Of a stretch of DNA of 64,000 nucleotides, positions 29,952-48,983 are shown piece by piece (within the stretch, counting starts at the first letter, position 1; every line of letters begins with the position of its first letter). The position numbers were made by a program, and so were the translations under genes. Source of the stretch: a bacterium (lineage in GTDB: Bacteria; Bacillota_I; Bacilli_A; RF39; UBA660). Under the pieces are notes generated by a model. It ran no database searches, was not told where the DNA came from, and worked only from the letters and a program-made list of their open reading frames with translations. The stretch is taken from the NCBI GenBank assembly GCA_030531905.1, contig JAUNMG010000003.1:3641-67640 (forward strand). The letters are read 5' to 3'.

Positions 29952-30722
29952 CTATCTTATTATTAGTTGTTGTCCAATAGTTAAATATGTTGATAATAGA
30001 TTATTATCACTAATAATTTTATCTACAGTAGTATTGTTTTTTTGTGCAATAGACCATAGAGTATCACCCTTTTGTACTGTGTAGACAATTTGGTTTGTAG
30101 GTGGTATTTTTAATTGTTGTCCAATTTGAAGAGTTAGTGATGACAAATTATTATAATTAACTAAATCATTAACTGAAACACCAAGTTTTCTAGCAATAGA
30201 CCATAAGGAATCTCCCTTTACAACTACATAGGTGTCAGAAGTAACATCATCTTGAGATGGTATTCTTAACTTTTGACCTATTGTAATCAAATTACTGCTT
30301 AGATTATTAAGTTGTTTTAACTCATTAACAGATATACCAAATTTATTTGCAATTGACCATAAGGAATCTCCCCTTACAACTGTATAATAGTCACCAGTAA
30401 CTGTAGAAGTACCTGGAGCTGTATATGGGGTATTTGTATAGTCAGCAATTGCTTTTACAACACCTTCAGCATATTTATCTAAATCTGATTGAAGTTTTCT
30501 AAGATCTCTTTGGTTATCAATAAAACCATATTCAATTAAAACAGATTCCCTTGGAGAAGTTTCTCTTATTATATAATAATAATCCTTGTTAGGATTTTCT
30601 GGTAATCTTCTTTGATATACTTTTCTTTTAATTTGACCAGCATCACCAATATTATTTAAAATCATATTAGCAAATGTAGGATCATTACGTAAGGCGTAAA
30701 CCACTTCAGCACCTTCGCCACC
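29952..30722 (-). pseudogene. Amidase fragment 3 of 3: C-terminal half of the Amidase_3 domain plus three LysM repeats
   Basis: The frame opens just after a TAA and reads (NSS)GGEGAEVVYALRNDP...LIEYGFIDN (end of the MurNAc-LAA domain). Three copies of Y.VV.GDSLWSIA.K.G.SV..L...N.L.S..L..GQ.L.IP follow. There is no start codon of its own apart from an internal GTG. Confidence 0.85.
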
Positions 30723-30784
30723 TGATGAGTTTAGTTAGCATTATTGATTATTTTTCACAATATTTATACTTAGAAATAATTGCC

Positions 30785-31456
30785 TTAATCTACCTCTTCT
30801 AATATCCCTTCAATTAAATATTCATATAAAACATCACTTATTGTTTGAGAATACAATCCATCTTCAATATTTTGTCTTTCTGTAGCAACCTGACCAGTTC
30901 CATTCCAATATGCATATGATATTCTTGAAATTGAGTTTTTATCAAATGAGGAAATATCACAATTCCACATTCTTGTAACAATTTCCATATTACACTTTGC
31001 TACTTTAATGCACTTATCTAAATCTGTATTTGTAATTTTTAATTTGAATTTTTTCACTTTCGACAAATCAAACATTTTGGGATATAATCTGCTGGCCTTT
31101 TCACATGATTCATAGTCTCCAAAAGCATATAAACAAGAGAATCTAGATGGATACTCTTGTTTTCTATAAAATTCTAATATATATTCAACTTGATAACTAT
31201 TAATTACATTCATCAAATGTGACGTTGGTGAAAGAAAAGTTGTTGAATTAGGAATAAAAGGTGCATATGTAATATTTCCCATAATAAAATCATTTATATC
31301 TATATTTGATATTTCCAAATTCTTAAAACCACCAGAAATTAATGAATTATTTAATTTATAGTTATGATAATTTATTTTACTATATATACTATTACCAAGG
31401 CCTATAAATACATAAAAAACTTTAGGACAGTTCTCATCCATATTTATTAATTTCAT
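30785..31456 (-). CDS. Hypothetical protein, 223 aa (element A cargo)
   Basis: Strong RBS AAAGGAGGA. The only motif noticed is EYPSRFSCLYAFGDYESCEKA, an R...Y...E pattern loosely reminiscent of RES/ART-type toxins. This is unverified. Confidence 0.5.
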   Translation of the reverse strand: MKLINMDENCPKVFYVFIGLGNSIYSKINYHNYKLNNSLISGGFKNLEISNIDINDFIMGNITYAPFIPNSTTFLSPTSHLMNVINSYQVEYILEFYRKQEYPSRFSCLYAFGDYESCEKASRLYPKMFDLSKVKKFKLKITNTDLDKCIKVAKCNMEIVTRMWNCDISSFDKNSISRISYAYWNGTGQVATERQNIEDGLYSQTISDVLYEYLIEGILEEVD

Positions 31457-31489
31457 AAAAATATCCTCCTTTTATAAATTTACTATTTT

Positions 31490-31891
31490 TTAATTTTCTT
31501 CTAGTATATTTACAAATTTATTGTATAAATTATTGTTGTCATTATTTATCAAATCATCTTCTAACATTTTTTTACCCTTTCTTTTTAAGATACGCATTAC
31601 ACCAACTCTTATTAGAGCATGTCTGAGATTTTTTAAATATTGATTATAATTTGAAGTTACACTATTATTTTGATTTCTTTGAAATCCTCTTAAATTATTC
31701 TCTAGATTATCAAGAAATAACAATTCACTCTCATATCTTTTTCTCATGATTTCAACTATATTAAAATCAACAGGCATAATTCCATTAATCATGTTATCAA
31801 TTGTTTTCAAATCTGTAATATATTGAGAATCTTCCATACTATCTTTTACTTCATCTAATTTTTTTATTATTTTTTCAATAATATCAACCAT
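31490..31891 (-). CDS. Hypothetical helical protein, 133 aa (element A cargo)
   Basis: RBS AAGAAAGGAGAAAG. It lies 33 nt upstream of the 223-aa gene and is predicted helical. No family was recognised. Confidence 0.5.
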   Translation of the reverse strand: MVDIIEKIIKKLDEVKDSMEDSQYITDLKTIDNMINGIMPVDFNIVEIMRKRYESELLFLDNLENNLRGFQRNQNNSVTSNYNQYLKNLRHALIRVGVMRILKRKGKKMLEDDLINNDNNNLYNKFVNILEEN

Positions 31892-31971
31892 TTCACTTTC
31901 TCCTTTCTTAAATTTATTAATTACTATTATAAAACATAAAATCCGTAAAAAAACATAAATATATCAGAAAG

Positions 31972-32007
31972 CAAAAAATAAGCCCTAACTAGATAACTAG
32001 TTAGAGC
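31972..32007 (-). terminator. Rho-independent terminator after the element A recombinase gene
   Basis: The reverse strand reads GCTCTAACTAG-TTAT-CTAGTTAGGGC followed by TTATTTTTTG. It separates the recombinase from the downstream 133/223-aa pair. Confidence 0.65.
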
Positions 32008-32012
32008 ATATA

Positions 32013-33683
32013 TTAATCTTTACTATACTGATTTTTGCCTTTTCTACCATAAGTATTTCTTGCTAAATTTCTATTTTCATATTTAAAAGTTACCTCTGGT
32101 ACAATATCATATTTAAAACATATAGTAATATTTCTATCTTTATCTATAACTATTTTATCTACTAATGTATCAATTAATTCTTTTTTTGGTTTATTTAAAT
32201 CTAATAGTTTTTTTATTTTTTTAGTATAATCAGGCAAAATATTTGCTTTGTTTTTCATTTTATATTTTTTAACATTTTGATTTTCTATCTCTTCATTAAT
32301 TTGTTTTAATTTTTGTTCAAATTCACTTGCTAATTCTTTATATGTATCTGCTGATATTACTCCATCACACCTATCATTGTATAAAATTTTTAATCTACCT
32401 GTAATCTTTTCTTTTTCTATTTGAAATTCTTTAACCATTTTATCAATGTTAGTAGTTTCATTGTGAATACTTTTTACTACTTCATCATTTAATTCTTTTA
32501 TATTAAGTTCTTTTATTAATTTAGATATACACTTGTTAATTTGTTCTAATACTTGTTCTTCTAAATAATTATATGGGTAAAAATGAGAATAGCATCTACC
32601 TCTTACTGGATCTCTAGAATATCTATTGCAATTAACAGACCAATAATCTTGTTTTTTACGATAAAGAACGGTAAGTCTATTTTTACATTCTTTACAAAAC
32701 AACTTACCTTCTAATAATCTTTTTTCTCTATTCGTTTTAACCTCATAATTTCTAGTATTCCTTTTTCTTAAAGTATTAACATATTCAAATGTATCTTTAT
32801 CAACTAATGGTTCATGAGTGTTTTCTACTATAATCCATAACTTTTCATCTAATGTTATCTTCTTTTTAGATTTATAACTGACTTTAGTTTGAGTGTGCTG
32901 TACTAAATCACCAGTATATACTCTATTAGTTAATATCTTTTTTACTGTGGAGATATTCCAATTATCTCTATCAATTAATCTTGATGAATAATTAGTCTTT
33001 TTATATCCACTAGGTGTAATTACATTTGCTTTATTTAGTCTATTTGCTATTTCAGTAGGTCCAATACCATCAGCTCTCCATTTAAATATTTTTTTGACTA
33101 TTGGAGCAGTATCTGGATTTGGTATTAAATGCCCCTTATCTAATGGATCTCTCATATAACCAAAACATGGTAAACTTCCAACAAATTTTCCATTTTTTCT
33201 TTTTTCATTTAATACATTTCTAATTTTTATTGAATTTTGTTTGCTATAATAATCATTACAAGCAATTATAAATGTTGATGAATCATTGCTAGCTTGATTT
33301 TTAAAACTATCATATGATTCTAATATAGATATAAATCTTATATTATTTTCTGGAAAAAATGTTTCAATATAATAACCAGTCATAACATGATCTCTACCTA
33401 ATCTTGATAAGTCTTTTACTATTACACAATTTATCTTTTTACTGTTTATATCTTCTAACATACTTTGAAATCCAGGTCTTTCAAAATCGGTTCCTGAATA
33501 TCCATCATCAACATATTCTTTAACTAAATTAAAATTATTATTTTTAACATAACCTCTTAATAACTCTTTTTGATTAATTACACTTTCACTATCAGATTCA
33601 TATTTTTTATCTTTATCTTCTTGGGATAATCTTATATAGATTCCAACATTGAAATCGTTTGCCATTAAGTAAGTATTATACAT
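32013..33683 (-). CDS. Large serine recombinase (SpoIVCA/CisA-like)
   Basis: 556 aa. It has an N-terminal resolvase domain (VGIYIRLSQED catalytic Ser, VIVKDLSRLGRD), a recombinase domain, a Cys-rich zinc-ribbon region (CKEC...C..C) and a C-terminal coiled coil. Confidence 0.9.
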   Translation of the reverse strand: MYNTYLMANDFNVGIYIRLSQEDKDKKYESDSESVINQKELLRGYVKNNNFNLVKEYVDDGYSGTDFERPGFQSMLEDINSKKINCVIVKDLSRLGRDHVMTGYYIETFFPENNIRFISILESYDSFKNQASNDSSTFIIACNDYYSKQNSIKIRNVLNEKRKNGKFVGSLPCFGYMRDPLDKGHLIPNPDTAPIVKKIFKWRADGIGPTEIANRLNKANVITPSGYKKTNYSSRLIDRDNWNISTVKKILTNRVYTGDLVQHTQTKVSYKSKKKITLDEKLWIIVENTHEPLVDKDTFEYVNTLRKRNTRNYEVKTNREKRLLEGKLFCKECKNRLTVLYRKKQDYWSVNCNRYSRDPVRGRCYSHFYPYNYLEEQVLEQINKCISKLIKELNIKELNDEVVKSIHNETTNIDKMVKEFQIEKEKITGRLKILYNDRCDGVISADTYKELASEFEQKLKQINEEIENQNVKKYKMKNKANILPDYTKKIKKLLDLNKPKKELIDTLVDKIVIDKDRNITICFKYDIVPEVTFKYENRNLARNTYGRKGKNQYSKD

Positions 33684-34272
33684 TTATTTCTCCCTTTATC
33701 TTACTTAATTTGGTATTAAGACGTGTCCATAATAACAGCAAGATTAAGAAAGGACAAATCATTTTGTTTGTACTTCCTCTTCTTTTGATATTTGTTCGAT
33801 TAAATATTTTAAAATAAGATCTTTAAATGAAATGTTATTCAAATAGGTTTCTTCCATAATCAAACCACCTATTTAAATTTATGTTTTTACTAGTATTATT
33901 AATATAATTATTAAAATTATTTATTATTAGATCAAATGTCGTTTGAGTATAAAAGGGCTAACCGTTTAGAATTTTTTTTAGCATGTCGGATGTAAACTTT
34001 TCTTTGATATCTATGTTTATTAGTAAATGTAACTTAAATGTTCTTAAGCAATTACCACCTTTCAAGATAAGATGATAATACATAAGAATCACCTCCATAA
34101 AACAGAAAAAAGACATAAGTCCTCTTTACATATTGTTTCTATAATATAATACGCCTAAATCAAATTCCGTAAGATTTGAAGCTACATATTTCAAATCATA
34201 ATATCTCATCTTCTATAGTTGAATAATATAAATTATCCGTTTCAAATTTTAATTTTTCTATTGTCTTATTTA

Positions 34273-36141
34273 TTATTTATTCAATCTTTCTCTAAAATAA
34301 TTTTGAAGATCCTTATTAGTACAATAAATATAGCACCCTTTCATCCCTCTTGTCATTAAAGTTCTATAAGTATTCTTTATTATTTCATCGGAAATTCCAT
34401 ATTGTTCTTCTTTTGGATATAAGTCCAAGCCTCTTAGTGATGAATCAGTTTTTGCTCTTTTTGTATGATCCGTAATAATATGATCATCTTCATATCTCAT
34501 ATCATCTCCTATTATTACACCAACATAATCGAATTCTAACCCTTGTGTAGTATGGATGCAACCAGCTTGTTTTACCGTATTTTCACCTAAAGCAAATAAT
34601 TCTCCACCATCTAGATTCCAACTCATTTCAAAATTATATTCAGGAATAACTATATCATTATAATCAGGATCTGTTCTATTTATTTTAGGCCAATCCCAAC
34701 AATATCCAGCTACTATTCTAGATTTATTATTAATTTTATTTTTTTCTTCTATTGCATTTCTTAATTCATTAGGATCATCAAAAATTTTAAATTCATAATC
34801 AAAACCATCTATGTCAAAATTAGCAGTTTCTCTTATTTCTAGAACATTATCTAACCATGCAATATAACCGTCAGATCCATTGCATCTAAATTGACAATCT
34901 AACTCATATGTATATATGCCTGCATTCAATTGTTTAGCAAAATATTTAATTGTTTCTTCTCTACCAATATCTTTTAATGTTACTCTCTGATTTTCATCTA
35001 AAAAGAATATAGAAAATCTTGAAGAGTTAATTATTTCCTTCACCTGATTTTCACCGTGTCCAAAAAAATCAGATTTTTCTGTTAATCTATGTGCCTCATC
35101 AACAATTAAACAATCTATAGCATTGCTCTTTTCATCAACGAATTTACCCGATGATTGAAATAAATGGCCTATATATTTTTTAGTGAAATCCCCTCTGAGT
35201 TTATTTGAATATACACTTCTTGGAGTTGCACTTTTGGTAACGTAAAAACATGTCATATCTCTTTTATTTAACTCAACTAGTAAATTAACTGCTAAAACTG
35301 ATTTTCCTGTTCCAGGTCCACCTTTTACAATAAAAACATTCTTAGAATTTGTTGATAAAGTATCAATAGCATACATTAACGCATATTCATATACAATTTT
35401 TTGCGAATCTATCATATAAAACTCTTTATTTCCTTTTAACATACTACCCAAATTATCCTGTAGCATTTTTGAAGGCCTAATTTTACCATTTTCTACTTCA
35501 TATAATACTTTTTTATCATCGCCTATTTCAATATATTTCTTAATAAACTTTCTTAATTTTAAAACATCTCTTGCTGAAAAAATTGGAGCTTCCTTAACAT
35601 ATTCTTGATAATTACTTCTTAACAATGGATCGTTATCAGAAAAATAATAATTATGAAGAAAGGCACAAGGTCTTATATTAATTTTTTTATCTTCTACATT
35701 TGAATTATAATCTCTAATTAAATTTGCATATGTCATTGCCTGATAAGAAGGATGATTAACATCCCTTTTTTTGCTACCTGTATAGGTATTAACCTTATAA
35801 ATGCCATCTACTTTACCAACTTCTTCACATTCATCCCATTGTTTCAATTCAACAATAACAACTTCATGAGAATCCTTTTTACTGTATCCAGACATCATAA
35901 AATCAATTCTGTTTCCCGTTGGAGGAATATTATACTCTATAGCTATCCCAACATTATTCGGTATCTCATCATCATCTAAAACACCCCTCATATATTGCAT
36001 AGAATTTTTCCATGAATTATACTCCTGAATTGGTGGTTTTCTGTGAATTAATTCTATATATTTTTCTCTAATTTTATCAGCTATAATACCCAAATTTACT
36101 TCTTCAATAAAACTGGACTTTATTCCTTGATACACTAACAT
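34273..36141 (-). CDS. DUF2075-type (Schlafen-like) ATPase/helicase with an N-terminal PD-(D/E)xK nuclease-like domain
   Basis: 622 aa. The N-domain has RIDFMMSGY....VVIVELKQW (D...ExK). It also has Walker A GGPGTGKSV, Walker B LIVDEAHRL and a late helicase motif IHTTQGLEFDYVGVIIGDD. Confidence 0.75.
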   Translation of the reverse strand: MLVYQGIKSSFIEEVNLGIIADKIREKYIELIHRKPPIQEYNSWKNSMQYMRGVLDDDEIPNNVGIAIEYNIPPTGNRIDFMMSGYSKKDSHEVVIVELKQWDECEEVGKVDGIYKVNTYTGSKKRDVNHPSYQAMTYANLIRDYNSNVEDKKINIRPCAFLHNYYFSDNDPLLRSNYQEYVKEAPIFSARDVLKLRKFIKKYIEIGDDKKVLYEVENGKIRPSKMLQDNLGSMLKGNKEFYMIDSQKIVYEYALMYAIDTLSTNSKNVFIVKGGPGTGKSVLAVNLLVELNKRDMTCFYVTKSATPRSVYSNKLRGDFTKKYIGHLFQSSGKFVDEKSNAIDCLIVDEAHRLTEKSDFFGHGENQVKEIINSSRFSIFFLDENQRVTLKDIGREETIKYFAKQLNAGIYTYELDCQFRCNGSDGYIAWLDNVLEIRETANFDIDGFDYEFKIFDDPNELRNAIEEKNKINNKSRIVAGYCWDWPKINRTDPDYNDIVIPEYNFEMSWNLDGGELFALGENTVKQAGCIHTTQGLEFDYVGVIIGDDMRYEDDHIITDHTKRAKTDSSLRGLDLYPKEEQYGISDEIIKNTYRTLMTRGMKGCYIYCTNKDLQNYFRERLNK

Positions 36142-36163
36142 TTACTTCAACTCCCTAATAAAA

Positions 36164-36478
36164 CTATAACTTATTATATTTATTACTTACACCCTTTGCT
36201 TTTTCCACAGGATACTTTTGTGCTGATATCTCCATTTTTTCTAATATAATCTGCTTTGGATCCACACCTATTTGTGAACATAATAAAATACAATAATTCA
36301 TAACATCAGCTATTTCATATTTTAGTTCATCTTTGTCATAATTATTATTCCATTGAAAACATTCTAACAGTTCTCCGGCTTCTATAGAAATTGATTTAGC
36401 TAAATTTTCTGGCGTATTAAATTGTAGCCAATCTCGTTCTTCAGCAAATTCTCTGATTTTTTTAGTTAATTCTTCCAT
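36164..36478 (-). CDS. MazG-like all-alpha nucleoside triphosphate pyrophosphohydrolase
   Basis: 104 aa. The motifs are FAEERDW.QF.TP.NLA.SI.IEAGELLE.FQW and ...ELKYEIADV. It lies 22 nt upstream of the DUF2075 gene. Confidence 0.75.
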   Translation of the reverse strand: MEELTKKIREFAEERDWLQFNTPENLAKSISIEAGELLECFQWNNNYDKDELKYEIADVMNYCILLCSQIGVDPKQIILEKMEISAQKYPVEKAKGVSNKYNKL

Positions 36479-36598
36479 AAAACACCTCTTTTATCTCAAT
36501 TATATCACGAAAATTGGTAAAATTTGGATTTGAACTAAAAAATTATAAAAAAAGAAATTGAATCCTCTCATTACACAATAAAAAAAGAAATAGTTTAA

Positions 36599-37444
36599 TT
36601 ACTTTTTATCAAACAATTCTTCAACAATTAAATCTCTTGAATGTAAATTATTATTTTTACCTAATAATAGATTTTCATAAAATTTAACTAAATAACTACT
36701 ATCTTCTTTTATGTTTAAATAGTTATTAAAATAATTACTTCTTACTAAAGCATTTCTAAAATAAACTGATTTATCTTTAAACAGACTATTATCTACATTG
36801 TAACCTAAACTAATTAAATATTTTTCAATAAATAAAGCTGTAGTTCTAGTATTTCCTTCTCTAAAAGGATGTACTTGCCATATACTAGAAGAAAATTTAG
36901 TTATGTTATTAATAACCTCTACTATATTCATTTCTTCATAGTTTTTTTCTAATTCTTTCGATATATCATATTCTAATGATGCCGTTAAAGTAGTGCAATC
37001 TCCATACGCTACAGAATCATTATTAAGTATTTTTTCATGTTTAGAAAAATCTATTTTTCTAAATTCCCCAGCAAATTCATAGACATCCTGAAATAAAAAT
37101 TTATGAACATATTTCAAATAATCAACTGATAAATTAAAATTATCTTTATTTAATAATTCAACTATTCTAGTAGATACAAAATCACATTCTAATTCATTAT
37201 GATTTATTTCATTTTTATTTTCTTTTTCAATGTAATAATCTTTTAATTCTTTTTCTACTTCTTCTATTGTTAAATTACCTTCTACTTCTTCTTCCAATAA
37301 TTTTCCTAAGTATTTAGAAGGTTTTAAATTATCTACTTTTTGTAATCCAATAGCCATATCCCATTGTAATTGTTTTACATAATTTCTAGATTTATATTGT
37401 TCTTCATATTCATTAACACTTGAATCTAATTCTCTTTCGCTCAT
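36599..37444 (-). CDS. Fic/DOC family protein with a divergent active-site motif
   Basis: 281 aa. The Fic motif reads HPFREGNTRTTA against the consensus HPFx[DE]GNGRxxR: the second Gly is Thr and the last Arg is Ala. Confidence 0.75.
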   Translation of the reverse strand: MSERELDSSVNEYEEQYKSRNYVKQLQWDMAIGLQKVDNLKPSKYLGKLLEEEVEGNLTIEEVEKELKDYYIEKENKNEINHNELECDFVSTRIVELLNKDNFNLSVDYLKYVHKFLFQDVYEFAGEFRKIDFSKHEKILNNDSVAYGDCTTLTASLEYDISKELEKNYEEMNIVEVINNITKFSSSIWQVHPFREGNTRTTALFIEKYLISLGYNVDNSLFKDKSVYFRNALVRSNYFNNYLNIKEDSSYLVKFYENLLLGKNNNLHSRDLIVEELFDKK

Positions 37445-37669
37445 AATTTAGTCCTCCTAACTATGTATAATTGTATCATAAAACACCTAATAATAAAACT
37501 TTTACACCAATCGCATTTTTAATAATTTAAAAAAATTTCTTTGGTGATATCTTTTAATTATATTCTCATCATTTAAAATTTATAATTTCATCATTTTATT
37601 ATTTAATATAATTGTAAATTTTTGATAACTCAATTGTTAATATGTTATTTAAGAAGTGTGATCACTTAA

Positions 37670-37897
37670 TTATTTAACATCATCTATACTAAATTTGTTT
37701 TTTACTTTATAAAATTTGCACAAATAAATATAACATTTTTTAATTGCTTTCTCTACTATTTTTACATCTTCAATAAATTCATTATATCTATAATTTTCAT
37801 TTTCAGATAATAGATGAACATTATTATGTCTCTGAACAAATATATTATCCAGTTTTTTATAATAATTGCCTTTCATTTTATTATAAACATTTTCCAA
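37670..37897 (-). CDS. Hypothetical small protein, 75 aa
   Basis: An ORF only, with no motif. It is the first gene inside the right end of element A. Confidence 0.3.
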   Translation of the reverse strand: MENVYNKMKGNYYKKLDNIFVQRHNNVHLLSENENYRYNEFIEDVKIVEKAIKKCYIYLCKFYKVKNKFSIDDVK

Positions 37898-38108
37898 ATC
37901 AATGCTTGAATCTACTTTCTTGAAGTTTTCACAAGAAAATTTACTATTTTTTTAGTTAAAAAGAAAAAAGCAACATTTATTTTCTAAATAAATACTGTCT
38001 TAATGATGTTTACTATATTCCTAGATTAAACTATACTGTCTAATTTAATCGTTTAAATATAACCGTTTTAATACTCAATCAAATTATATAATGGTAACTG
38101 AACTCGTC

Positions 38109-38339: not shown

Positions 38340-38395
38340 TCAGGTATCGGTTTTCCCCAAAAACTACATATTTTATAAAATTTATAGGTTATATA

Positions 38396-41210: not shown

Positions 41211-41353
41211 TTCACTTTATATTGTTAATTTTCGTTAACACCTATAATATACATCGTAATTACTATGCTGTCAACACTTTTATTAACATTTTTATTATTT
41301 TTGTTGATTTTTGTTAACACATATGCTATTATTAGTGTGTGAGGTGTATTATT

Positions 41354-41857
41354 ATGCAAGAAAAAAAGATTGGCGAAGTAATTGCCAATGCTAGAGAAAA
41401 TGCAGGTCTTTCTCAAAGACAGCTTGCAAAGGTTGCTAAAATAAGTAATGCTGAATTATCAAAAATTGAATCTGGTGAACGTGAAATACCAAATCCTAAA
41501 ACATTAAGAAAGATAAGCAAATACATAAATGTTAATTATAATGAAATGATGAACATGATTGGTTTAGGAATGGAAGTAAGCACTTTAAATCCATTTATTA
41601 AAGATTACTATGATAAAATGAATCTAGATCAACTTAATGAAGCAGAAATGAATGTTTTTGGTAGTATAACTAATTCAAAACAATTAGTAGAATCGTGTAA
41701 GAAAAATTTAGAGAAAGATAACATATCAGAACAAGAAAAAGATTTATTACTACATACTATTGAAGATACTGAATATCAAATCAATACTTCAACTGCAATT
41801 ATTGAATTAATTCAAACATTAAAGATAAAGGAGAGAAATAAAAATGCAAAAAAATAA
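41354..41857 (+). CDS. XRE-family HTH regulator (repressor-like) with a helical C-terminal extension
   Basis: The HTH_3 region reads IGEVIANARENAGLSQRQLAKVAKISNAELSKIESGEREIPNPKTLRKISKYI. The start is set at the ATG preceded by GAGGTG. Confidence 0.75.
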   Translation: MQEKKIGEVIANARENAGLSQRQLAKVAKISNAELSKIESGEREIPNPKTLRKISKYINVNYNEMMNMIGLGMEVSTLNPFIKDYYDKMNLDQLNEAEMNVFGSITNSKQLVESCKKNLEKDNISEQEKDLLLHTIEDTEYQINTSTAIIELIQTLKIKERNKNAKK

Positions 41858-42287
41858 AAATTTAATTAGGAATATTGCTATTGTATTATTAAATGTTTTA
41901 TTAGTAGTTAGTTTAGTATTAGCGTTAGTTTTAAAAAATAATTTTGGGTATAATTTATATTGGGTTGCAACACCATTTTTAATGGTATTAGTTTTATCAG
42001 TAATTCAAAAATGGAGTGTTAGAGGATTAAATGCTGATACTCAAGAATCAAAAACAATACAAAGAGCATTTGATGATACTACTACATTATCAACTGTATT
42101 TTTTGGATTAATATATTTAATAATACAATTTATTGATTGGCAAAAAGAAAAAATAATAAATAATCCTTATGTAATAATTGGTTTCTTTATAGTAATGGTA
42201 GTTTATGAATTATTTACTTATTTAGCAATATATAACGCTAAAAAAGAAACTGCAAAATTATTAGAAAAAATATATAATAAAAAATAA
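41844..42287 (+). CDS. Membrane protein, 147 aa, 4 TM
   Basis: A hydrophobic ORF overlapping the XRE gene end by 14 nt. Confidence 0.45.
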   Translation: MQKNKNLIRNIAIVLLNVLLVVSLVLALVLKNNFGYNLYWVATPFLMVLVLSVIQKWSVRGLNADTQESKTIQRAFDDTTTLSTVFFGLIYLIIQFIDWQKEKIINNPYVIIGFFIVMVVYELFTYLAIYNAKKETAKLLEKIYNKK

Positions 42288-42320
42288 AAGTCCTTTGCAA
42301 GTAATTGCATTGGACTTTTT
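42288..42320 (+). terminator. Rho-independent terminator
   Basis: AAAGTCC-TT-TGCAA-gtaa-TTGCA-TT-GGACTTT followed by TTT. Confidence 0.65.
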
Positions 42321-42505
42321 ATAACGACTCAGGGCTTCTAAAGATTCCTGAGTTCCAATCAATAAATATTTATCATAAATAATTGCTTGTGTCAATTATT
42401 TAGATAAATTTATTAAAAAATGCGTGGCACGTTTTGTCAGCTTTGCTGATGAAAGTGGCGATAGCATTTTTTCTTTTTTATGAAAACGAAAGTTGAATAA
42501 AAAAG

Positions 42506-42544
42506 AGTAATACCTTTGCTTACGAAGTTTGCATTGGTATTACT
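42506..42544. other. Hairpin H1 with the 11-nt loop TTACGAAGTTT
   Basis: AGTAATACC-TT-TGC-[TTACGAAGTTT]-GCA-TT-GGTATTACT. Confidence 0.6.
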
Positions 42545-42577
42545 TAAAAGGGGTTTCAAAAGGGTATTCTCCCTTTG

Positions 42578-42635
42578 CACACTGATATTGGCGAGCCAAT
42601 ATCGTAGTGTGTTACTAACTTGTCTAAAAGTTAGT
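42578..42635 (+). other. Candidate MobV-type oriT (hairpin plus GTGTG/TT nick-like motif)
   Basis: CACACT-GATATTGGC-GA-GCCAATATC-GT-AGTGTG is followed by TTACTAACTT-gtctaa-AAGTTAGT. The TAGTGTGTTA core resembles the nick region I recall for pMV158-family (MobM) oriT, 5'-GTGTG/TT-3'. Confidence 0.45.
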
Positions 42636-42641
42636 CAATAA

Positions 42642-42680
42642 CGAGAATCCATTAGTTACGAAGTTTCTTTTGGATTCTCG
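42642..42680. other. Hairpin H2 with the same 11-nt loop TTACGAAGTTT
   Basis: CGAGAATCCA-TT-AG-[TTACGAAGTTT]-CT-TT-TGGATTCTCG. The stem sequence is unrelated to H1 but the loop is identical. Confidence 0.6.
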
Positions 42681-42686
42681 CAAATT

Positions 42687-43025
42687 TTAATCTATAAGTT
42701 CTATTTTTGTTGTACCAATTTGTGCTGGATAACTTTCATTTATTAAACCTTCATAAGTTATTTTTACTTTTGAATCTATTTTGCAAGAGTTAAAGCCATC
42801 AACATATTCAATTCTAAACTTATCACTGGATTTATATTCTTCTTCTGTATTATCTGGTTTAACAATCATAGAATTTTGTTCACACTCAACAATTATTCCT
42901 TTAAATGTATGAACATCATCTTTTGAATTTAATTTGTCTTTCCCATCTGATTTATTACATCCAGTTAATCCTAATACCATAACCCCACAAAGTAAAATAG
43001 TTAATATTGTCTTTTTCATAATCAA
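42687..43025 (-). CDS. Small lipoprotein (DUF3221/YobA-like)
   Basis: 112 aa with a lipobox LGLTGC. It is a short beta-rich mature domain. Confidence 0.55.
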   Translation of the reverse strand: MIMKKTILTILLCGVMVLGLTGCNKSDGKDKLNSKDDVHTFKGIIVECEQNSMIVKPDNTEEEYKSSDKFRIEYVDGFNSCKIDSKVKITYEGLINESYPAQIGTTKIELID

Positions 43026-43057
43026 TCCTCCATTTCAACAAATTTACTATTTAAAGA

Positions 43058-43717
43058 TTAAATTAATTTTATATAATTATTATATACTTTCATAAATTCA
43101 GAATGAGTATCAATAACTATCTCATATGTATTTGATCCTATTTGAATAATTAGTCCATCTTTTGCTTCTTGTATTGAAGTAATTTTCTCGTGTGGTTTAT
43201 CAAAGCTTACATTTTGTGAAGAATAAATTAATCTTTTTGTTGTTAAATATAATGTACCAAAATATTTAGTCCTTTGAGTTTCTCTAATAGCTCTACTTCC
43301 ACTTGCACCTGTTCTATATGAAATTCCTTTTGCTATTCTAATACTTACACCATTATTTCTACCTGTATAACCAGTTGTAATAGTCTTATCTTTAAATGTA
43401 TATCCTTTATCCATATAACAACAAAATTCATTTTCTTCAAGATTTAAGTTTGGTGTGTTAATACAAGGCATATCCCCATTATTAATTTGCTTAATAACAT
43501 CATAACTCATTAAAGATCCAGCTCCATTTATATGGAACAAATCTCTCGTTACAGCTATAACATCCTTAAACCATCCTATCATAAAAATTCCACCAGTAAA
43601 TAAATATAATATACCCATACCAATTTCACCATTCATAAATTTATGGATACCAAAAGGGCCTCCAAATAAAACTATAAAGAAATCTCTTATTTTTTTCATA
43701 TTATCTACAAACCTCAC
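43058..43717 (-). CDS. TM2-domain membrane protein with a C-terminal soluble (PH/GRAM-like?) domain
   Basis: 219 aa. GGPFGIHKFMNGEIGMGILYLFTGGIFMIGWFKD is a TM2 signature. The C-terminal about 130 aa are beta-rich. Confidence 0.6.
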   Translation of the reverse strand: MRFVDNMKKIRDFFIVLFGGPFGIHKFMNGEIGMGILYLFTGGIFMIGWFKDVIAVTRDLFHINGAGSLMSYDVIKQINNGDMPCINTPNLNLEENEFCCYMDKGYTFKDKTITTGYTGRNNGVSIRIAKGISYRTGASGSRAIRETQRTKYFGTLYLTTKRLIYSSQNVSFDKPHEKITSIQEAKDGLIIQIGSNTYEIVIDTHSEFMKVYNNYIKLI

Positions 43718-43913
43718 TATCTATTTTTAATTCACTTTTAACAAGATGCATTGGAATTAATATATCTCGCTTGCTTTCTGGAATATAATAATTTTTCTCT
43801 TTAGCAATTTCAAGTAAATGTTTCATTACCCTTTCCGCGTTTCTTCTTCCGCACCCTAATATCGATTGCAATTCTTTTATATTTATATATACTTTTTCCA
43901 TCAAAACCTCCAA
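43701..43913 (-). CDS. Small HTH protein, excisionase/AlpA-like candidate
   Basis: 70 aa. INIKELQSILGCGRRNAERVMK is an HTH-like segment. Its size and position are typical of element-encoded Xis-type proteins. Confidence 0.45.
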   Translation of the reverse strand: MEVLMEKVYINIKELQSILGCGRRNAERVMKHLLEIAKEKNYYIPESKRDILIPMHLVKSELKIDSEVCR

Positions 43914-43935
43914 TTTATTAAATCAATCCTTATAA

Positions 43936-44073
43936 TTATTTTTCACTTGAATTGTATAAAAGGTTTATAGAATCTTGAATTCTCTTTATAATTTCTTTTT
44001 TCTTTTCTTCTGATGGTGGATTCATTACAACAACTTTAAGTTCTTTCTTTTGTTTTTTCTTTTTCTTCTCCAT
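43936..44073 (-). CDS. Small Lys-rich protein, 45 aa; not in the ORF track
   Basis: MEKKKKKQKKELKVVVMNPPSEEKKKEIIKRIQDSINLLYNSSEK, with RBS AAAGGAG. It sits between two co-directional genes. Confidence 0.3.
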   Translation of the reverse strand: MEKKKKKQKKELKVVVMNPPSEEKKKEIIKRIQDSINLLYNSSEK

Positions 44074-44086
44074 AAAATAAACTCCT

Positions 44087-44404
44087 TTACTTATTTTTTA
44101 ACAATTCAAGCAAATCATCTTTAAGTAATATAAAATTATTATTTATTTCATCTAATCTTTTTTCTATTCCATCTATCAAACATTGATCCAATTTACCATT
44201 TTTATATGCAATAAGCCTATCTGGAATTATATAATAACTCCATTTGTTAACTCTTTTTATAGCATAGCCAATAGGTATTTTTTGTTCCCTTAAGCCTATA
44301 GCAACAGCCATTGGCGGAATTCCTAAATATTCTCCTGCTACTTTTGTAGTAATATTTTTAATGTTTCTCATATTATCATCTGTATACTTATTCATAAATC
44401 TCAC
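44087..44404 (-). CDS. Hypothetical protein, 105 aa (possible HTH)
   Basis: ITTKVAGEYLGIPPMAVAIGLREQKIP resembles an HTH. It is the last gene of the 46917-44087 co-directional block. Confidence 0.4.
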   Translation of the reverse strand: MRFMNKYTDDNMRNIKNITTKVAGEYLGIPPMAVAIGLREQKIPIGYAIKRVNKWSYYIIPDRLIAYKNGKLDQCLIDGIEKRLDEINNNFILLKDDLLELLKNK

Positions 44405-44411
44405 ATACTTT

Positions 44412-45542
44412 TTAATTTAAATATTTTAATAAATCATCTTCGCCAATAATTTGTATTGATTTACCTTTTTCATTTAACTCCATAGCTTTTTGGACTTTTC
44501 CACCATAGTTACCAAATTTCCAAGCTTCACTTCCTGAACCTCCAACTATTAAATAATTTAATTTAGAATTAACACCTTTACTAATTATTCCGCCTTTATT
44601 AACGATTTTATTTTCAACTTCTTCTTTTGATCCACTATTAAATGTACCTGTTAAACAAAAATTCATATTTTCAAAAATAATATCACTATCATTTTTATTT
44701 TCCTCTAAAGGATTAATAAATTCATTAAAAATTGATATTAATTCTATATATTCTTCATCACTAACTTTTCCATCAAGAAGAACGCTTTTTACTATATTAT
44801 TTATTTTATCAAAAGGATAATTACCAATTAACTGTGTATTATCATTTAACCAACTATTGAGAGAATATATTTCTTCTAATTCTATTTTTTGATCCTCCAT
44901 TATAGTTTCAATTATACTTTTCAATACTTGTAATGATTTAGTATCATCACTATAAACAACTTTCATACCAGTAGAACGATTTTTATTTTCAATGTAATTA
45001 TATTCTTCTACATCATTTTCATCTATATCATAATTATCTTTTATATAATTAAAAATATCTAAACAAGCCATTGTATCAAATAAAGCATTGTGATGTTCTT
45101 CAAGTTTTATTCCTAAATAATCACAAACATAATCTAATTTATAATGACTTATATCTAAATATTTTTGTGATAATTTTTGAGTACATATTATTTTTAGTGT
45201 TGGAAGTATAATATTATATTTTTGCAATGTTTTAGTAATAACACTCAAATCATATTTAATACCATGACCCACAATAATACTATTTGTTAATATTTCTTCA
45301 TTATCTTTCCAGAATTTATCAAATGTCAGAGAATCCTTAACCATATTAGGTGTAATTTTATTTACCCTCATATTTATTTCATCAAATCTATCTTCTGGAT
45401 TTATCAATACATTTTCCTTTTTTACAACTTCATTATTTTTTACCTGAATAAAAGCTATAGAACAAATAGAATCTGCTTTTGTATTTGGATTTTCTATATC
45501 TAATACTATAAAATCTTTGATATTTAATTTAGTTTCTACCAT
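44412..45542 (-). CDS. DEDDh (DnaQ-like) 3'-5' exonuclease fused to a helical middle domain and a C-terminal BRCT domain
   Basis: 376 aa. It has ExoI FIVLDIENPN, ExoII IVGHGIKYDLSV and ExoIII HHNALFDTMA. The C-terminus FCLTGTF....EVENKIVNKGGIISKGVNSKLNYLIVGG...KVQKAMELNEKG..IQIIGEDDL is BRCT-like, as in NAD-ligase. Confidence 0.75.
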   Translation of the reverse strand: MVETKLNIKDFIVLDIENPNTKADSICSIAFIQVKNNEVVKKENVLINPEDRFDEINMRVNKITPNMVKDSLTFDKFWKDNEEILTNSIIVGHGIKYDLSVITKTLQKYNIILPTLKIICTQKLSQKYLDISHYKLDYVCDYLGIKLEEHHNALFDTMACLDIFNYIKDNYDIDENDVEEYNYIENKNRSTGMKVVYSDDTKSLQVLKSIIETIMEDQKIELEEIYSLNSWLNDNTQLIGNYPFDKINNIVKSVLLDGKVSDEEYIELISIFNEFINPLEENKNDSDIIFENMNFCLTGTFNSGSKEEVENKIVNKGGIISKGVNSKLNYLIVGGSGSEAWKFGNYGGKVQKAMELNEKGKSIQIIGEDDLLKYLN

Positions 45543-45556
45543 AATTTACCTCTTTT

Positions 45557-45817
45557 CTAAATAAATGTATATCTTTTATCTTTTTTCATCTTTTCAATTT
45601 CTTCTTGTGTATAAAACCAACTAGATGTATCAATACCTCTTTGTTCGCAACTTCTAGCTATATCATTGATTGTATCGTATAATTTAATCAATGATTTCCT
45701 TTTTTGTGCTACAGTCATTTGTGGTACATGAACAATAACTGTAGAATTACCAAATTTATATGTTATTTCTCTTTCTTCTTGAATAATATCTTCATCTTTT
45801 AACTCTTTTGAAAACAT
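45557..45817 (-). CDS. Hypothetical protein, 86 aa
   Basis: An ORF lying 14 nt upstream of the exonuclease gene. No motif was recognised. Confidence 0.4.
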   Translation of the reverse strand: MFSKELKDEDIIQEEREITYKFGNSTVIVHVPQMTVAQKRKSLIKLYDTINDIARSCEQRGIDTSSWFYTQEEIEKMKKDKRYTFI

Positions 45818-45858
45818 AAAATCATTCCTTTAACTATATTAATTATAACATTTTTTTG

Positions 45859-46917
45859 TTATTTTTTATTACTCAACTGACGATTTATTAAAATATAAAG
45901 TTCTTTAGTATCAATAGGATCTAATCCTATCTTTATAGCATCATCATTATCTTCACAAAATTCAAATCTTATATCTAAAAATTGTATTTTTTCTTGATTC
46001 CAAAAATTAAATCTTAAAGTAGGATCAATAAAACTATATTCTGTATCGTATCTTTTACTTATATCATTTTTACTCATTCTTTTTAATAAATCTTTTAATT
46101 CTTTTTCTTTAAATGTTATTATCTTATCTGCTCTAAAATAATGATTTTTTATTCCAAATCTTATAATATATTCTTTTTTTATTTTTTTAAACTCTAAAAT
46201 ATTGAATAATATTTTTGTTCCACTATCTATTGTAATATAGTTGTCCTTACTATTGATTTCAAAATCATATAATCCTTTTTCATAATAATCAGATATAATC
46301 CATTCAATTTGATTTATGTAAAAGTCATATTTTAACTCTTCTATCTCATTGTGAGGAATACAAGATTGATAAATATTATCTTTACGATTATTTATAATAG
46401 GTATTAAAACTTTCTCTATTTCAATAATATCTTCATCATTGTCAAAATTATAAGATTTTATTTTATTTAATAACTTATTTATAGGAGAATTATTACCTAC
46501 ATAATTTGAATAGTAAACAATATTATCATAAAAATAATAAAGAAACATTTTTCTAAAACCATCAAAAAATTTTGTATAGTTTTGATTTTTATGAAAATCA
46601 TCTAAACAATACAATATCTTTGAATATTTATTAGTTAATGATAATTCTATTAACATATCTTGTTCTATGTGATCAATATGATAATGATCTCTAACATAAC
46701 CTATATACTTGTCTAAATTACCTAAAAACTTTTCTTCGTGTGTAATTACATCTTTTCCATAAGCGAGATTACTTGTTAATTTAATAGTACCCTCTGTTAT
46801 TTTATCTAACATACTAGGTAAATAATCTCCATATAAAAATTTATAAATCTCTCCACCACAAGAATAATATTTATTCAAACATAATTCCTTCATTATTTCA
46901 ATTTTTTCTTTTTTCAT
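45859..46917 (-). CDS. Hypothetical protein, 352 aa
   Basis: The first gene of the block, divergent from the tandem-HTH regulator. No motif was recognised, and it is Tyr/Asn/Asp-rich. Confidence 0.45.
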   Translation of the reverse strand: MKKEKIEIMKELCLNKYYSCGGEIYKFLYGDYLPSMLDKITEGTIKLTSNLAYGKDVITHEEKFLGNLDKYIGYVRDHYHIDHIEQDMLIELSLTNKYSKILYCLDDFHKNQNYTKFFDGFRKMFLYYFYDNIVYYSNYVGNNSPINKLLNKIKSYNFDNDEDIIEIEKVLIPIINNRKDNIYQSCIPHNEIEELKYDFYINQIEWIISDYYEKGLYDFEINSKDNYITIDSGTKILFNILEFKKIKKEYIIRFGIKNHYFRADKIITFKEKELKDLLKRMSKNDISKRYDTEYSFIDPTLRFNFWNQEKIQFLDIRFEFCEDNDDAIKIGLDPIDTKELYILINRQLSNKK

Positions 46918-47042
46918 TATTTTCCCTCACTTTTAAAAGAATTTTGTACTACCTATATAATTATATCACATTTTTGGTATATTACCCGCTATTTTCGTAT
47001 CAAAGCCATATTAAATGGGAAAATTAATATGGTGAGAGAAAT

Positions 47043-47471
47043 ATGATAGATAATAATTTAAAATATTGTAGAGAAGAACTTGAAATGACACAAACTGAAT
47101 TAGGTAATATATTTGGTGTAAGCGATTCAACTGTTCGTGGTTGGGAAAATGCTTATGATACTATACCATTAAGAAAGTTAGTTAAATTTTGTAATCAATT
47201 TAATTATTCTATTGATTATGTTTTAAATTTAACAAGAGAAAATAAACATTATTCTAAAATAGAAAAATTAGATAAAGTTGTTATTGGTAAGAAATTAAAA
47301 TCTTTAAGAGAAAAGTTAGGATTAACGCAACAAAAAATCGCTGATGAATGTTCTATTTCTAGAGCTACATATTGTCATTATGAAATAGGCATGAATCTAA
47401 TAACTACTTTAACTTTATATACAATATGTAAAAATCATAAAATCTCAATTGATGAATTTTTAAGAAAATAA
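47043..47471 (+). CDS. Regulator with two tandem XRE-type HTH domains
   Basis: 142 aa. It has two HTH_3 units: LEMTQTELGNIFGVSDSTVRGWENAYDTIPLRKLVKF and LGLTQQKIADECSISRATYCHYEIGMNLITTLTLYTI. Confidence 0.75.
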   Translation: MIDNNLKYCREELEMTQTELGNIFGVSDSTVRGWENAYDTIPLRKLVKFCNQFNYSIDYVLNLTRENKHYSKIEKLDKVVIGKKLKSLREKLGLTQQKIADECSISRATYCHYEIGMNLITTLTLYTICKNHKISIDEFLRK

Positions 47472-47551
47472 AAAAAGTGAGGTATGCTAAATAAATAACA
47501 TATCTCACTTTTATTTTGTAATATTTAAAGAATAACAATAATCAAAAACAT

Positions 47552-48832
47552 TTATAAACTCATTTCGTAATCATCTTTATCTCTATCATCTTTGTTATAA
47601 CTTCTTCTAGATTTTAGATAACTAGGAACATTAGCATAATCAAATAATTCATCTTCTTTTTCAGTTCGTGTAGCAATATCAAATACATCATCTGAATTAA
47701 AGTCTTTATTATCATAGTATAACTTAACTTGTTCTACAACTTCTTCTTGTGTTTCTTTATTACCTATCTTTAATAGATTTCTAAAGAATTCTTTAACCTT
47801 ATCTAATATATAATTAAGAATTGATTTAAGACTATTATTTTCTTCTACAAGTTCTTGATTTCTACTTTTTAATTTACTAATTTCCTTTTCCATACTTTTA
47901 TTTTCTTTTTCTAATGTTTGATGGCTTTTAGTAAATGTCTGAACTTCATTAAATAATTCATTTATTTTAGGTTGAAATTGTATTGCTTTTCTAGTTTCAT
48001 CAATAACTTTATTCATTGATTCAAAAGTTTCTTTTTTAACTTTAACATAATCTTTATCAATAAATGAATTTTTAGTTGTTTTCATTTTTTCTTCAAAATC
48101 ATTCATAGCATTATCAAGATTCTTGTTTATAACTTCTACTTTATTTTCATAATATCTAGTAGTTTTTTTAAAATCTTTAACTTTTTGATGCTTGGCATCA
48201 CTCTTAATTCCTCTTTCTAATCTAAAACCATTAGCATTTAATCTTTCACAATATTTGTCTTGTAATACTGATAAATGTAATTTATCTTTAATAAATTGCT
48301 TTTTAGATATGGTATATCTTTCTGTATTTGTTCTTTTATCTAATTTTTTAACAAGTGGTATAACTACACAATGAATATGTGGTGTATCTTCATCCATATG
48401 AACAGTAGCGTGTAATACTTGTTCTTTTTTATAACCTAAATCCTGATAAACAAAATCCATACAAGTATCAGCCCATCTTTTAATTTCTTCTTTACTCATA
48501 TCTTTAAAAAAATTAGGTGTAGCAGTAAATAATAGTTCATCAGCAACAACATTTCTTGATAGATTAACCATTTGATTAAATGTTTTTTGTCTTTCCTTTC
48601 TCTCTTTTTTCATTTTTTCTTCGTGTTCTTTTCTATAATCTAAAGTTTTGTTATAAAAACCCTTAACATATTTTTCTGTTAAGGGTATTAACTCAATATT
48701 TTCACTACTTAATTCTCTCCTAATATTAGGATTTGATCTATAAGAACTTTTTTCTCTTTTATTATGTGATCCAAGTTGTGCTAGGTCATTTAAGGTATAT
48801 ATTGGCTCACTTCTAAAAATTGCATAATTCAT
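47552..48832 (-). CDS. MobV-family relaxase (Mob/Pre plasmid recombination enzyme)
   Basis: 426 aa. It has N-terminal MNYAIFRSEPIYTLNDL..LGSHNKRE, a histidine motif ATVHMDEDTPHIHCVVIPL and a long C-terminal coiled coil. Confidence 0.85.
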   Translation of the reverse strand: MNYAIFRSEPIYTLNDLAQLGSHNKREKSSYRSNPNIRRELSSENIELIPLTEKYVKGFYNKTLDYRKEHEEKMKKERKERQKTFNQMVNLSRNVVADELLFTATPNFFKDMSKEEIKRWADTCMDFVYQDLGYKKEQVLHATVHMDEDTPHIHCVVIPLVKKLDKRTNTERYTISKKQFIKDKLHLSVLQDKYCERLNANGFRLERGIKSDAKHQKVKDFKKTTRYYENKVEVINKNLDNAMNDFEEKMKTTKNSFIDKDYVKVKKETFESMNKVIDETRKAIQFQPKINELFNEVQTFTKSHQTLEKENKSMEKEISKLKSRNQELVEENNSLKSILNYILDKVKEFFRNLLKIGNKETQEEVVEQVKLYYDNKDFNSDDVFDIATRTEKEDELFDYANVPSYLKSRRSYNKDDRDKDDYEMSL

Positions 48833-48932
48833 ATATCATTCTCCTTTCAATTTTTATGCAAATTAAAAGATACTTTTCACAAAGTACCTTGATAAATCCA
48901 ATTTGTTATTCCTCATTATTGGGGAATAAATA

Positions 48933-48983
48933 ACCTCCATGACCAGCATCTACAATAACTCTCACGTTATCATTTCTAAACAT
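48933..48983 (-). pseudogene. Amidase fragment 1 of 3: start codon and first 17 codons
   Basis: GGTGATTAAA-ATG, then MFRNDNVRVIVDAGHGG (the Amidase_3 ..IDxGHGG opening, with no signal peptide). The frame then runs into element B sequence (YLFPNNEE, stop at 48906). Confidence 0.8.

Follow-up and report, generated by a model that had tools for sequence, protein, structure and literature searches.

Background

Intervening elements that interrupt mother-cell genes and are excised during sporulation have been described under the names skin, SPbeta, vfbin, vrin, gin and yin (PMC4191935, PMC5595907, PMC6957869, PMC10747680), and in the skin elements the recombinase gene lies beside the 3' piece of the interrupted gene, no other gene being common to them (bioRxiv 10.1101/2022.02.25.481979). 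In the heterocyst genes of cyanobacteria, ten cases are known of a gene with multiple elements, including nifD of Rivularia with four (PMC4874684). The present work concerns a stretch of 64,000 nucleotides from contig JAUNMG010000003.1 (NCBI GenBank assembly GCA_030531905.1), referred to as a whole as the window, in which an Amidase_3-LysM gene on the minus strand is divided by two elements, each of which encodes its own large serine recombinase (LSR). Because both insertion sites are occupied in this genome, the amidase gene lies in three pieces. Excision of the two elements in the mother cell during sporulation, which would rebuild the gene, is the best explanation and on balance a probable one.

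The sporulation genes described as targets of such elements are sigK, spoVFB, spoVR, spsM, gerE and yabG, and spoVK is used by SPbeta-like phages. In the searchable literature no amidase or cwlC target of intervening elements was found, nor any spore-former gene routinely split by two elements, the nearest parallel being heterocyst nifD. The host of the window is a low-GC gut bacterium of the Bacilli that has not been cultured and has sporulation genes; spore formers are predicted among related uncultured orders (PMC10868615). Occupancy of the same two insertion points extends to well over a hundred uncultured gut species, which points to widespread splitting of this gene.

Results

One amidase gene in three pieces

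The three minus-strand pieces (48983-48940, 38337-38108 and 30718-29952) join, at the repeated GHGG and GG residues, to encode a single protein of 346 amino acids that consists of an Amidase_3 domain followed by three LysM domains. An earlier note on this DNA had listed three fragments, which translation reproduces exactly, and had read them as one colinear gene with a product of about 345 amino acids and no signal peptide; the single product stands, with its length corrected to 346. The alignment to intact orthologues that the note had proposed as a check was run and is colinear and gapless: among 5.8 billion proteins searched there are intact 346-residue orthologues (P0001-P0004), which are 99, 97, 96 and 95% identical to the joined product and need no gap where the pieces meet. 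The intact genes and the window amidase also have the same neighbours, namely an MTA/SAH nucleosidase (mtnN-like) gene upstream and a 214-codon open reading frame (ORF), HSP20 and a P-type ATPase downstream. The gapless match, taken together with the shared neighbourhood, excludes chance and misreading.

Exon 1 (48940-48983, minus strand) runs from the ATG through the CA of the His15 codon (MFRNDNVRVIVDAG followed by CA). Exon 2 (38108-38339, minus strand) encodes residues 15-90 and is bounded by that CA (38339-38338) and by an AGGTG core (38112-38108), and exon 3 (29952-30723, minus strand) contains the AGGTG core, the catalytic Glu region, the three LysM repeats and the stop codon. In a Pfam scan of the joined product, the Amidase_3 profile is matched from position 1 to 173 of 174 (E 6e-30, residues 9-183), in addition to the three LysM domains. 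On the basis of alignment to solved Amidase_3 enzymes and knowledge of the fold, the metal ligands are presumably His15, at the border of exons 1 and 2, and Glu29 and His86 in exon 2, while Glu154 in exon 3 is taken to be the catalytic residue. With these residues divided among the three pieces, none of the pieces would be active by itself.

The N-terminus of the joined protein (MFRNDNVRVIVDAGHGG) contains no hydrophobic stretch, which bears out the reading that it has no signal peptide, and the protein is predicted to be a cytoplasmic Amidase_3-LysM peptidoglycan hydrolase. The CwlC-type layout ascribed to it earlier holds for the N-terminal Amidase_3 domain and the missing signal peptide and does not extend to orthology, because the wall-binding repeats are LysM rather than SPOR and a scan of curated families matched neither an equivalog nor a CwlC model; "CwlC-like" is a functional analogy. 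Identification of the window amidase as CwlD was also rejected, since it scores 70 bits against the CwlD model, for which the cut-off is 221.

Junctions and attachment sites

The junctions were set to the nucleotide by the empty site of a strain of the same species (L084/L085). An identical short core is present at both ends of each element, and excision would restore the reading frame exactly. At site 2, between exons 1 and 2, attB reads GCTGGT[CA]CGGTGGCGTT (short form GGT[CA]CGGTGG), the left junction in the window reads GGT[CA]TGGAGGTTATTT and the right junction CCTGA[CA]CGGTGGCGTT; the two copies of the CA core (48941-48940 and 38339-38338) lie inside the His15 codon of the GHGG motif. 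At site 1, between exons 2 and 3, attB reads GCGGG[AGGTG]GCGAAGG, the left junction GCGGG[AGGTG]ACGAGTTC and the right junction CTCATC[AGGTG]GCGAAGG, and the AGGTG cores (38112-38108 and 30723-30719) fall at G90/G91, between NAGG and GEGAE. The rebuilt coding sequence comprises 44 + 230 + 767 nt, or 1041 nt, which is 346 codons and a stop. The breaks had thus been correctly placed at the element edges, but the true border of exons 1 and 2 is the CA within the His15 codon.

The rebuilt junction at site 1 (attB1) has the sequence AATGCGGGAGGTGGCGAAGG, with junction k-mer AATGCGGGAGGTGGCGAAGGTGCT, and that at site 2 (attB2) the sequence GCTGGTCACGGTGGCGTT, with junction k-mer GATGCTGGTCACGGTGGCGTTGATAG; the corresponding circle junctions have the k-mers CTAACTAAACTCATCAGGTGACGAGTTCAGTTACC (attP1) and AACCGATACCTGACATGGAGGTTATTTATTCC (attP2). 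In the reconstructed attP of element 1 the arms are inverted repeats that match at 19 of 22 positions, with GG at the centre, as read by eye with a one-base shift, and the inverted repeat in the attP of element 2 is weaker. Each insertion is a clean recombinase product. Apparent further insertion sites at residues 27 and 51 (L054, L063, L066) were rejected, as they are site 1 with a spurious extension of the alignment.

Occupancy of the two sites across genomes

Site 1 was scanned with one genome per species, in the 80 best-matching species-representative loci, whose hosts are uncultured gut "Bacilli", some of the records being labelled Erysipelotrichaceae, Tenericutes, Clostridium sp. CAG:451, Mycoplasma sp. 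CAG:877 or Candidatus Onthousia. About 40 of the 80 have an amidase match that starts at residue 91, with the host sequence resuming at the identical nucleotide (GGTGGCGAAGG) and a relative of the element 1 recombinase (LSR1) at 46-96% identity directly upstream of the gene piece; in about 28 the amidase is uninterrupted. In the reverse test, which started from LSR1, relatives at 47% identity or more with a usable flank lie nearly all at site 1, and about 19 further site 1 species are added, with three having the recombinase at the opposite element end. The exceptions are L111 (53%), which lacks an amidase within 5 kb, and L113, whose LSR is partial. Of about 50 LSRs at 45% identity or less to LSR1, none lies at site 1.

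Relatives of the element 2 recombinase (LSR2) at 53-91% identity gave 80 species-level loci, 64 of them judgeable. The insertion is at the amidase His codon, with the remainder of the gene contiguous, in 33 of the 64, and another 22 are doubly interrupted like the window, with a middle exon that ends in NHINAGG and then meets an element end. With L042, a further double interruption for which neither exon 1 nor a site-2 recombinase was found within 4.4 kb upstream, the total of species-level genomes with both insertions comes to about 23. At species level, about 60 genomes are interrupted at site 1 and about 70 at site 2, and members of the LSR2 clade were placed at site 2 in about 63 loci. The earlier judgement that two tandem interruptions of one gene would be unusual is therefore sound for the literature and not for this lineage. 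In L017 the site-2 element is complete (7.8 kb) and adjoins an exon 1 that has its own CATAnnnTA promoter. In 8 of the 64 loci (L216, L219, L248, L257, L268, L273, L280 and L288) the same motif, GHGG, has received the insertion in another Amidase_3 gene, a cwlD-like one, whose piece lies directly downstream of the LSR2 relative; for the pieces in L216, L248 and L288, which are fragments without the N-terminus, the best curated match is CwlD TIGR02883 at 172-188 bits. In these distributions two unrelated recombinase clades each use one fixed site in the amidase.

Several contigs with Bacilli-type amidases (L017/L239, L244, L269, L274, L015, L028 and L033) are filed under other taxa, in bins of Acidaminococcus, Methanobrevibacter, Bacteroidaceae, Phocaeicola and Muribaculaceae, and are probably mis-binned. 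An IMG/VR "viral" contig (L170:9244-14971) carries a site-1 element, with an LSR 88% identical to LSR1, and the 3' piece of the amidase, and directly after these come another, unrelated integrase gene and small genes of phage-like character. It was considered as a phage source of the element and rejected, being a chromosomal stretch that holds a site-1 element.

Selection on the split gene

The reading frame is open throughout, in all 22 C-terminal pieces examined and in all 24 middle exons from genes with both interruptions. For residues 91-188, the ratio of nonsynonymous to synonymous substitution rates (dN/dS) in three bins of dS, the deeper of which are saturated, is 0.00, 0.16 and 0.105 in interrupted genes and 0.09, 0.195 and 0.10 in intact genes, and for the middle exon it is 0.36 and 0.21 in interrupted genes against 0.37 and 0.21 in intact ones. 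The split copies show no relaxation of selection, which argues against their being long-term pseudogenes and does not prove a function while the gene is interrupted.

The amidase promoter

The sigmaK promoters of B. subtilis have the consensus AC-N16-17-CATAnnnTA. A putative sigmaK-type promoter of this form lies upstream of exon 1 on the minus strand (48999-49025), with AC at 49025-49024, a 16-nt spacer and CATATATTA at 49007-48999, and is followed by an AGGTG ribosome-binding site at 48994-48990. CATAnnnTA is present in register, at a fixed distance from the ribosome-binding site, in 27 of 27 upstream regions of orthologues, which are mostly 45-75% identical and include several near-duplicates. 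A C is found 17 nt upstream of the motif in 21 of the 27, and AC at a spacing of 16-17 nt in 14; the three variable bases are never TAA, the preference of the sigmaA -10 element. No usable sigma70 promoter was found at the amidase, where the only sigma70-like matches overlap the start codon. Because the AC-N16-17-CATAnnnTA promoter is conserved and no usable sigma70 promoter is present, we infer that the amidase is probably expressed in the mother cell late in sporulation.

Mobility and turnover of the elements

Both elements are horizontally mobile and are not fixed relics. The amidases of L046 and L048 are 99% identical and their recombinases 48%, whereas the recombinases of L044 and L076 are 96% identical and their amidases 51%; LSR1 has a 96% identical relative in a distant host, and the cargo of the elements is not conserved among loci. 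The whole of element 2 (10.6 kb) recurs at 99.9-100% nucleotide identity in at least five different amidase genes, hosts and contexts, with the homology of the copies ending exactly at CCTGA[CA]. Since it is nearly identical in at least five hosts, element 2 is currently mobile and its integration active, and since transfer requires excision, excision must work for it as well. The right end of element 2 was also met at 100% identity over 1,665 nt beside a GHMP-kinase gene (L303:1-1700, where CCTGACA is followed by TCCTATATC), a non-amidase site that reflects either an off-target insertion or a chimeric contig.

All four states of the locus coexist in the species to which the window belongs: both sites empty (L001-3, L084-5), element 2 alone (L297, L298), site 1 filled by other elements (L005 and L086, in which site 2 was not assessable) and both sites occupied (the window, and L301 with L305 from one sample).

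Anatomy of the two elements

The presence of an LSR gene at each break, as first noted from the open reading frames, was borne out by Pfam: Resolvase (PF00239), Recombinase (PF07508) and Zn_ribbon_recom (PF13408) are matched in both LSR1 (32013-33683, minus strand) and LSR2 (38396-40000, minus strand), LSR2 has in addition a DUF4368 tail, and the serine motifs YIRLS and YCRLS can be read in the sequences. Each of the two genes lies at an end of its element, adjoins the downstream gene piece and is on the same strand as the amidase. The nearest phage recombinases are at most 34% identical, and a phage origin of the recombinases was rejected. No credible PHROGs or Pfam match to phage head, tail, packaging or lysis genes was found in either element; a single PHROG terminase small-subunit line for the XRE protein is without a matched stretch.

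Element 2 (38340-48939, minus strand) comprises 10,600 bp and one CA crossover dinucleotide at the GHGG His codon, its boundaries being set by the empty site and by the identical copies in other hosts. It encodes a Mob_Pre (MobV-type) relaxase (47552-48832, minus strand; PF01076, E 3e-29), and no mating-pair genes were found among its ORFs scanned. The combination of LSR2 and the relaxase with no conjugation or phage structural genes makes it an integrative mobilizable element. An XRE-family repressor (41339-41857, plus strand; Pfam HTH_3 and PHROG repressor families) is divergent from a row of genes for a 97-residue protein, an HTH_36 protein, a 55-residue protein and LSR2, with divergent sigma70-like promoters at 41274-41246 (minus strand) and 41304-41332 (plus strand), and this module is kept in 59-64 of 81 related loci of the LSR2 clade. 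The HTH_36 protein (40284-40802, minus strand; PF13730), which resembles replication initiators and matches PHROG replication-initiation families, is present in 64 of the 81 loci. The 55-residue ORF directly upstream of LSR2 (40064-40231, minus strand) ends about 65 nt before the recombinase start and is present in 78 of the 81; it has no family match and is a candidate recombination directionality (excision) factor. LSR2 itself has a sigma70-like promoter at 40079-40051. The remaining genes encode a second XRE regulator, a DEDDh exonuclease-BRCT protein (PDC-S48), a lipoprotein and a TM2 protein. A tiny ORF of 7-10 codons (for example MIGGINL*) is placed between the HTH_36 gene and the conserved ORF of 47-55 residues (window 40232-40283) and recurs at the equivalent position in most of L215-L294; its GGAGG serves at the same time as the ribosome-binding site of the next gene.

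Element 1 (30724-38107, minus strand), whose boundaries are likewise given by the empty site, comprises 7,384 bp and the 5-bp AGGTG core (7,389 bp from core to core) at site 1 and is a reduced recombinase-plus-defence islet. Its cargo (34273-37444, minus strand) was identified with Pfam and consists of a Schlafen/DUF2075-type helicase (34273-36141, with a weak AbiO/Nhi match in PADLOC), a MazG-like protein (36164-36478) and a Fic protein (36599-37444, matching the PADLOC candidate defence family PDC-S72 at 3e-79), all on the minus strand; two unknown ORFs are also present. LSR1 has a sigma70-like promoter at 33757-33729. Its leader (window 33684-33760) contains, between the sigmaA-like promoter and the ribosome-binding site, a conserved box (ATGATTTGC … GTCTTAATACC) that is found also in L039, L053, L058, L061, L064, L070 and L072, and that may function as an operator, as a leader peptide or at the level of RNA.

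Neighbouring genes

The sporulation genes in the window are spoVAC/AD, a sigF-like gene, a weak spoIIAA-like gene, a D-Ala-D-Ala carboxypeptidase gene in the dacF position and a SpoIID-domain gene; the window had been called rich in sporulation genes, and this is true of only part of it. At 2936-3929 (minus strand) the weak spoIIAA-like ORF (3582-3929) is followed after a gap of about 100 nt by the sigF-like ORF, in which a normal start codon and roughly the first 40 profile residues are missing, and no spoIIAB lies between the two. Just downstream of the amidase (28938-29690, minus strand) is a TIR-domain gene (PADLOC PDC-S66 / ThsB-like), present also in L086-L088 and absent from L001-L003, L297 and L298, which marks a second small variable defence spot. 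Upstream of the locus lie a gene of the Abi_2 abortive-infection type (55157-56119) and a gene (58990-63603) for a 1,537-residue protein with FHA and FtsK/SpoIIIE domains that is EssC-like (type VII secretion).

Discussion

Proposed excision during sporulation and its alternatives

If the elements are excised in the mother cell during sporulation, as is probable on balance, the locus would work as follows. The mother cell, late in sporulation, would be the only place where the amidase is required, and its chromosome would be discarded afterwards; these two circumstances together would allow elements to be tolerated in the gene. The elements' own recombinases, with an excision factor, would remove them in the mother cell and rebuild the amidase, which most likely would help in mother-cell lysis or in the remodelling of spore peptidoglycan, and the spore would retain the interrupted copy, in line with skin in sigK and SPbeta in spsM. 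This model is favoured because the amidase has a sigmaK-type promoter and its insertion sites show very high occupancy without decay, because two unrelated recombinase clades converge on one late gene, because site-2 elements are found in cwlD-like genes, the permanent loss of which should block spore germination, and because the anatomy is skin-like, with the recombinase beside the 3' piece and nothing else shared. The analogy with skin-type elements, which had been drawn in the earlier note, is retained as the leading hypothesis and is strengthened by the promoter, the unrelaxed selection and the cwlD-like targets.

A number of observations weigh against excision in the mother cell. Some concern control of the recombinases: the promoters of LSR1 and LSR2 are both sigmaA-like, the XRE repressor switch of element 2 is of an ordinary kind, and a sporulation-controlled excision factor or recombinase was looked for in both elements and not found. 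CATAnnnTA, a single strict motif beside which weaker sites are possible, does not occur in the intergenic regions of either element on the coding strand, and upstream of the conserved 55-residue ORF it is present in only 2 of 78 related loci. Element 1 has neither the HTH_36 module that is present in half of its relatives nor an obvious excision-factor gene. The exact rebuilt 346-residue protein is absent from a collection of 15 billion proteins, and the attP junctions of both elements have no match in viral contigs. Correlation between recombinase identity and amidase identity, tested as a sign of domestication, is lacking (Spearman -0.04), and with a rapid turnover of the elements and no co-divergence with their hosts, the intact reading frames could partly reflect recent insertions. 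Single mother-cell lysis amidases are dispensable for sporulation in B. subtilis, so the loss of the amidase might be tolerated.

A possible, though distinctly less probable, account is plain insertional inactivation at a conserved landing pad, in which carriers would live without the enzyme and excision would serve only transfer, under the control of the XRE switch or of stress and not of sporulation. This would fit the sigmaA-like promoters of the recombinases, the XRE-controlled operon of element 2, its MobV relaxase and recent spread between hosts, the failure of host and recombinase to co-diverge, the one apparently off-target copy of element 2 (L303) and the failure to find a sporulation promoter in the elements. 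It has difficulty, however, with the observation that about half or more of the species-representative genomes are interrupted and yet no stop codon is present in the pieces, and with dN/dS values that are as low in interrupted genes as in intact ones. Nor does inactivation explain why the target should have a conserved promoter of the mother-cell type, why two unrelated recombinase clades should have settled on one late-sporulation gene, or why one of these clades should also be found in cwlD-like genes, whose permanent loss would be expected to block germination.

An improbable alternative is a reversible switch outside sporulation, similar to active lysogeny, in which excision in a subpopulation would activate the autolysin, perhaps to release DNA, to form biofilms or to transfer the element. 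The XRE-type switch and the relaxase suggest that excision is governed by a signal, and an enzyme without a signal peptide would act only on cell lysis; against this, the conserved CATAnnnTA promoter argues for expression in the mother cell, there is no sign of another cue, and the LSR2 elements in cwlD-like genes would go unexplained. An assembly artefact or a chimera of unrelated contigs, for which nothing specific speaks beyond the window seemingly being from a metagenome-type assembly, can be set aside as practically negligible, since nucleotide-exact junctions recur in dozens of independent assemblies and samples and the L301 contig is identical across the boundary of element 2, exon 2 and element 1.

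Excision in the mother cell may be extended to a broader scheme, which is considered rather unlikely in its entirety, of a lineage-wide developmental rearrangement in two steps. Both elements would have to excise in the mother cell before the autolysin could be made, and would thereby act as a safety catch or timer on lysis, with cwlD treated likewise in some species, while the elements would gain a safe harbour from which to ferry anti-phage defence genes.

Implications

The results add a peptidoglycan amidase gene, and probably cwlD, to the sporulation genes split by recombinase elements, and they extend such splitting to uncultured gut Bacilli with reduced genomes, in which it is far more pervasive than in the cases described so far; this is also the first example found in spore formers of two elements routinely splitting one gene. 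The amidase locus is a hotspot that carries defence genes. The attachment sites lie in codons of catalytic motifs and are conserved to the nucleotide, and the dozens of natural attB/attP variants provide a panel for the study of recombinase specificity and for genome engineering. Reads across the empty-site and circle junctions could be used to test for sporulation in organisms that have never been cultured.

Comparison with known systems

CwlC of B. subtilis is a sigmaK-dependent amidase of mother-cell lysis with a SPOR wall-binding domain. The window amidase resembles it, as far as sequence alone can tell, in having Amidase_3 within a few residues of the N-terminus, no signal peptide, C-terminal wall-binding repeats and a sigmaK-type promoter, and differs in having three LysM repeats in place of SPOR. 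Element 2 can be compared with Tn4451/Tn4453, mobilizable elements with the serine recombinase TnpX and the Mob/Pre relaxase TnpZ. The likeness is one of gene content alone, namely a DUF4368-tailed LSR and a Mob_Pre relaxase without conjugation genes, together with a dinucleotide crossover, whereas element 2 is strictly specific for the GHGG His codon of Amidase_3 and has no resistance gene.

The closest likeness in anatomy is to skin in sigK (B. subtilis SpoIVCA; Clostridioides difficile CD1231 with its directionality factor CD1234), in which an LSR element likewise splits a coding sequence, there that of a late mother-cell gene, as the amidase gene probably is too, the recombinase lies beside the 3' piece, and precise excision would restore the frame. 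The target of skin is a sigma factor, whereas here it is a peptidoglycan amidase with two fixed sites and two recombinase clades, and the present elements are small, are not prophage-like, are still spreading horizontally and have a timing of excision that is proposed by analogy. SPbeta in spsM (SprA/SprB) is a case of an active mobile element whose excision in the mother cell rebuilds a sporulation gene (PMC4191935, PMC5499854), and gin in gerE of Bacillus cereus shows that an intervening element need not be a prophage (PMC5595907). SprB has a known mother-cell promoter, the equivalent of which was not found in the elements described here, and in contrast to SPbeta and gin, element 2 is mobilizable and bears a relaxase and element 1 is an islet with defence cargo, both in uncultured gut Bacilli. 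The heterocyst elements in nifD, fdxN and hupL provide the parallel for several recombinase-bearing elements in one gene, where they are removed in a terminally differentiated cell; they belong to another phylum and another cell type, whereas in the amidase described here each of the two sites has its own dedicated recombinase clade across many species.

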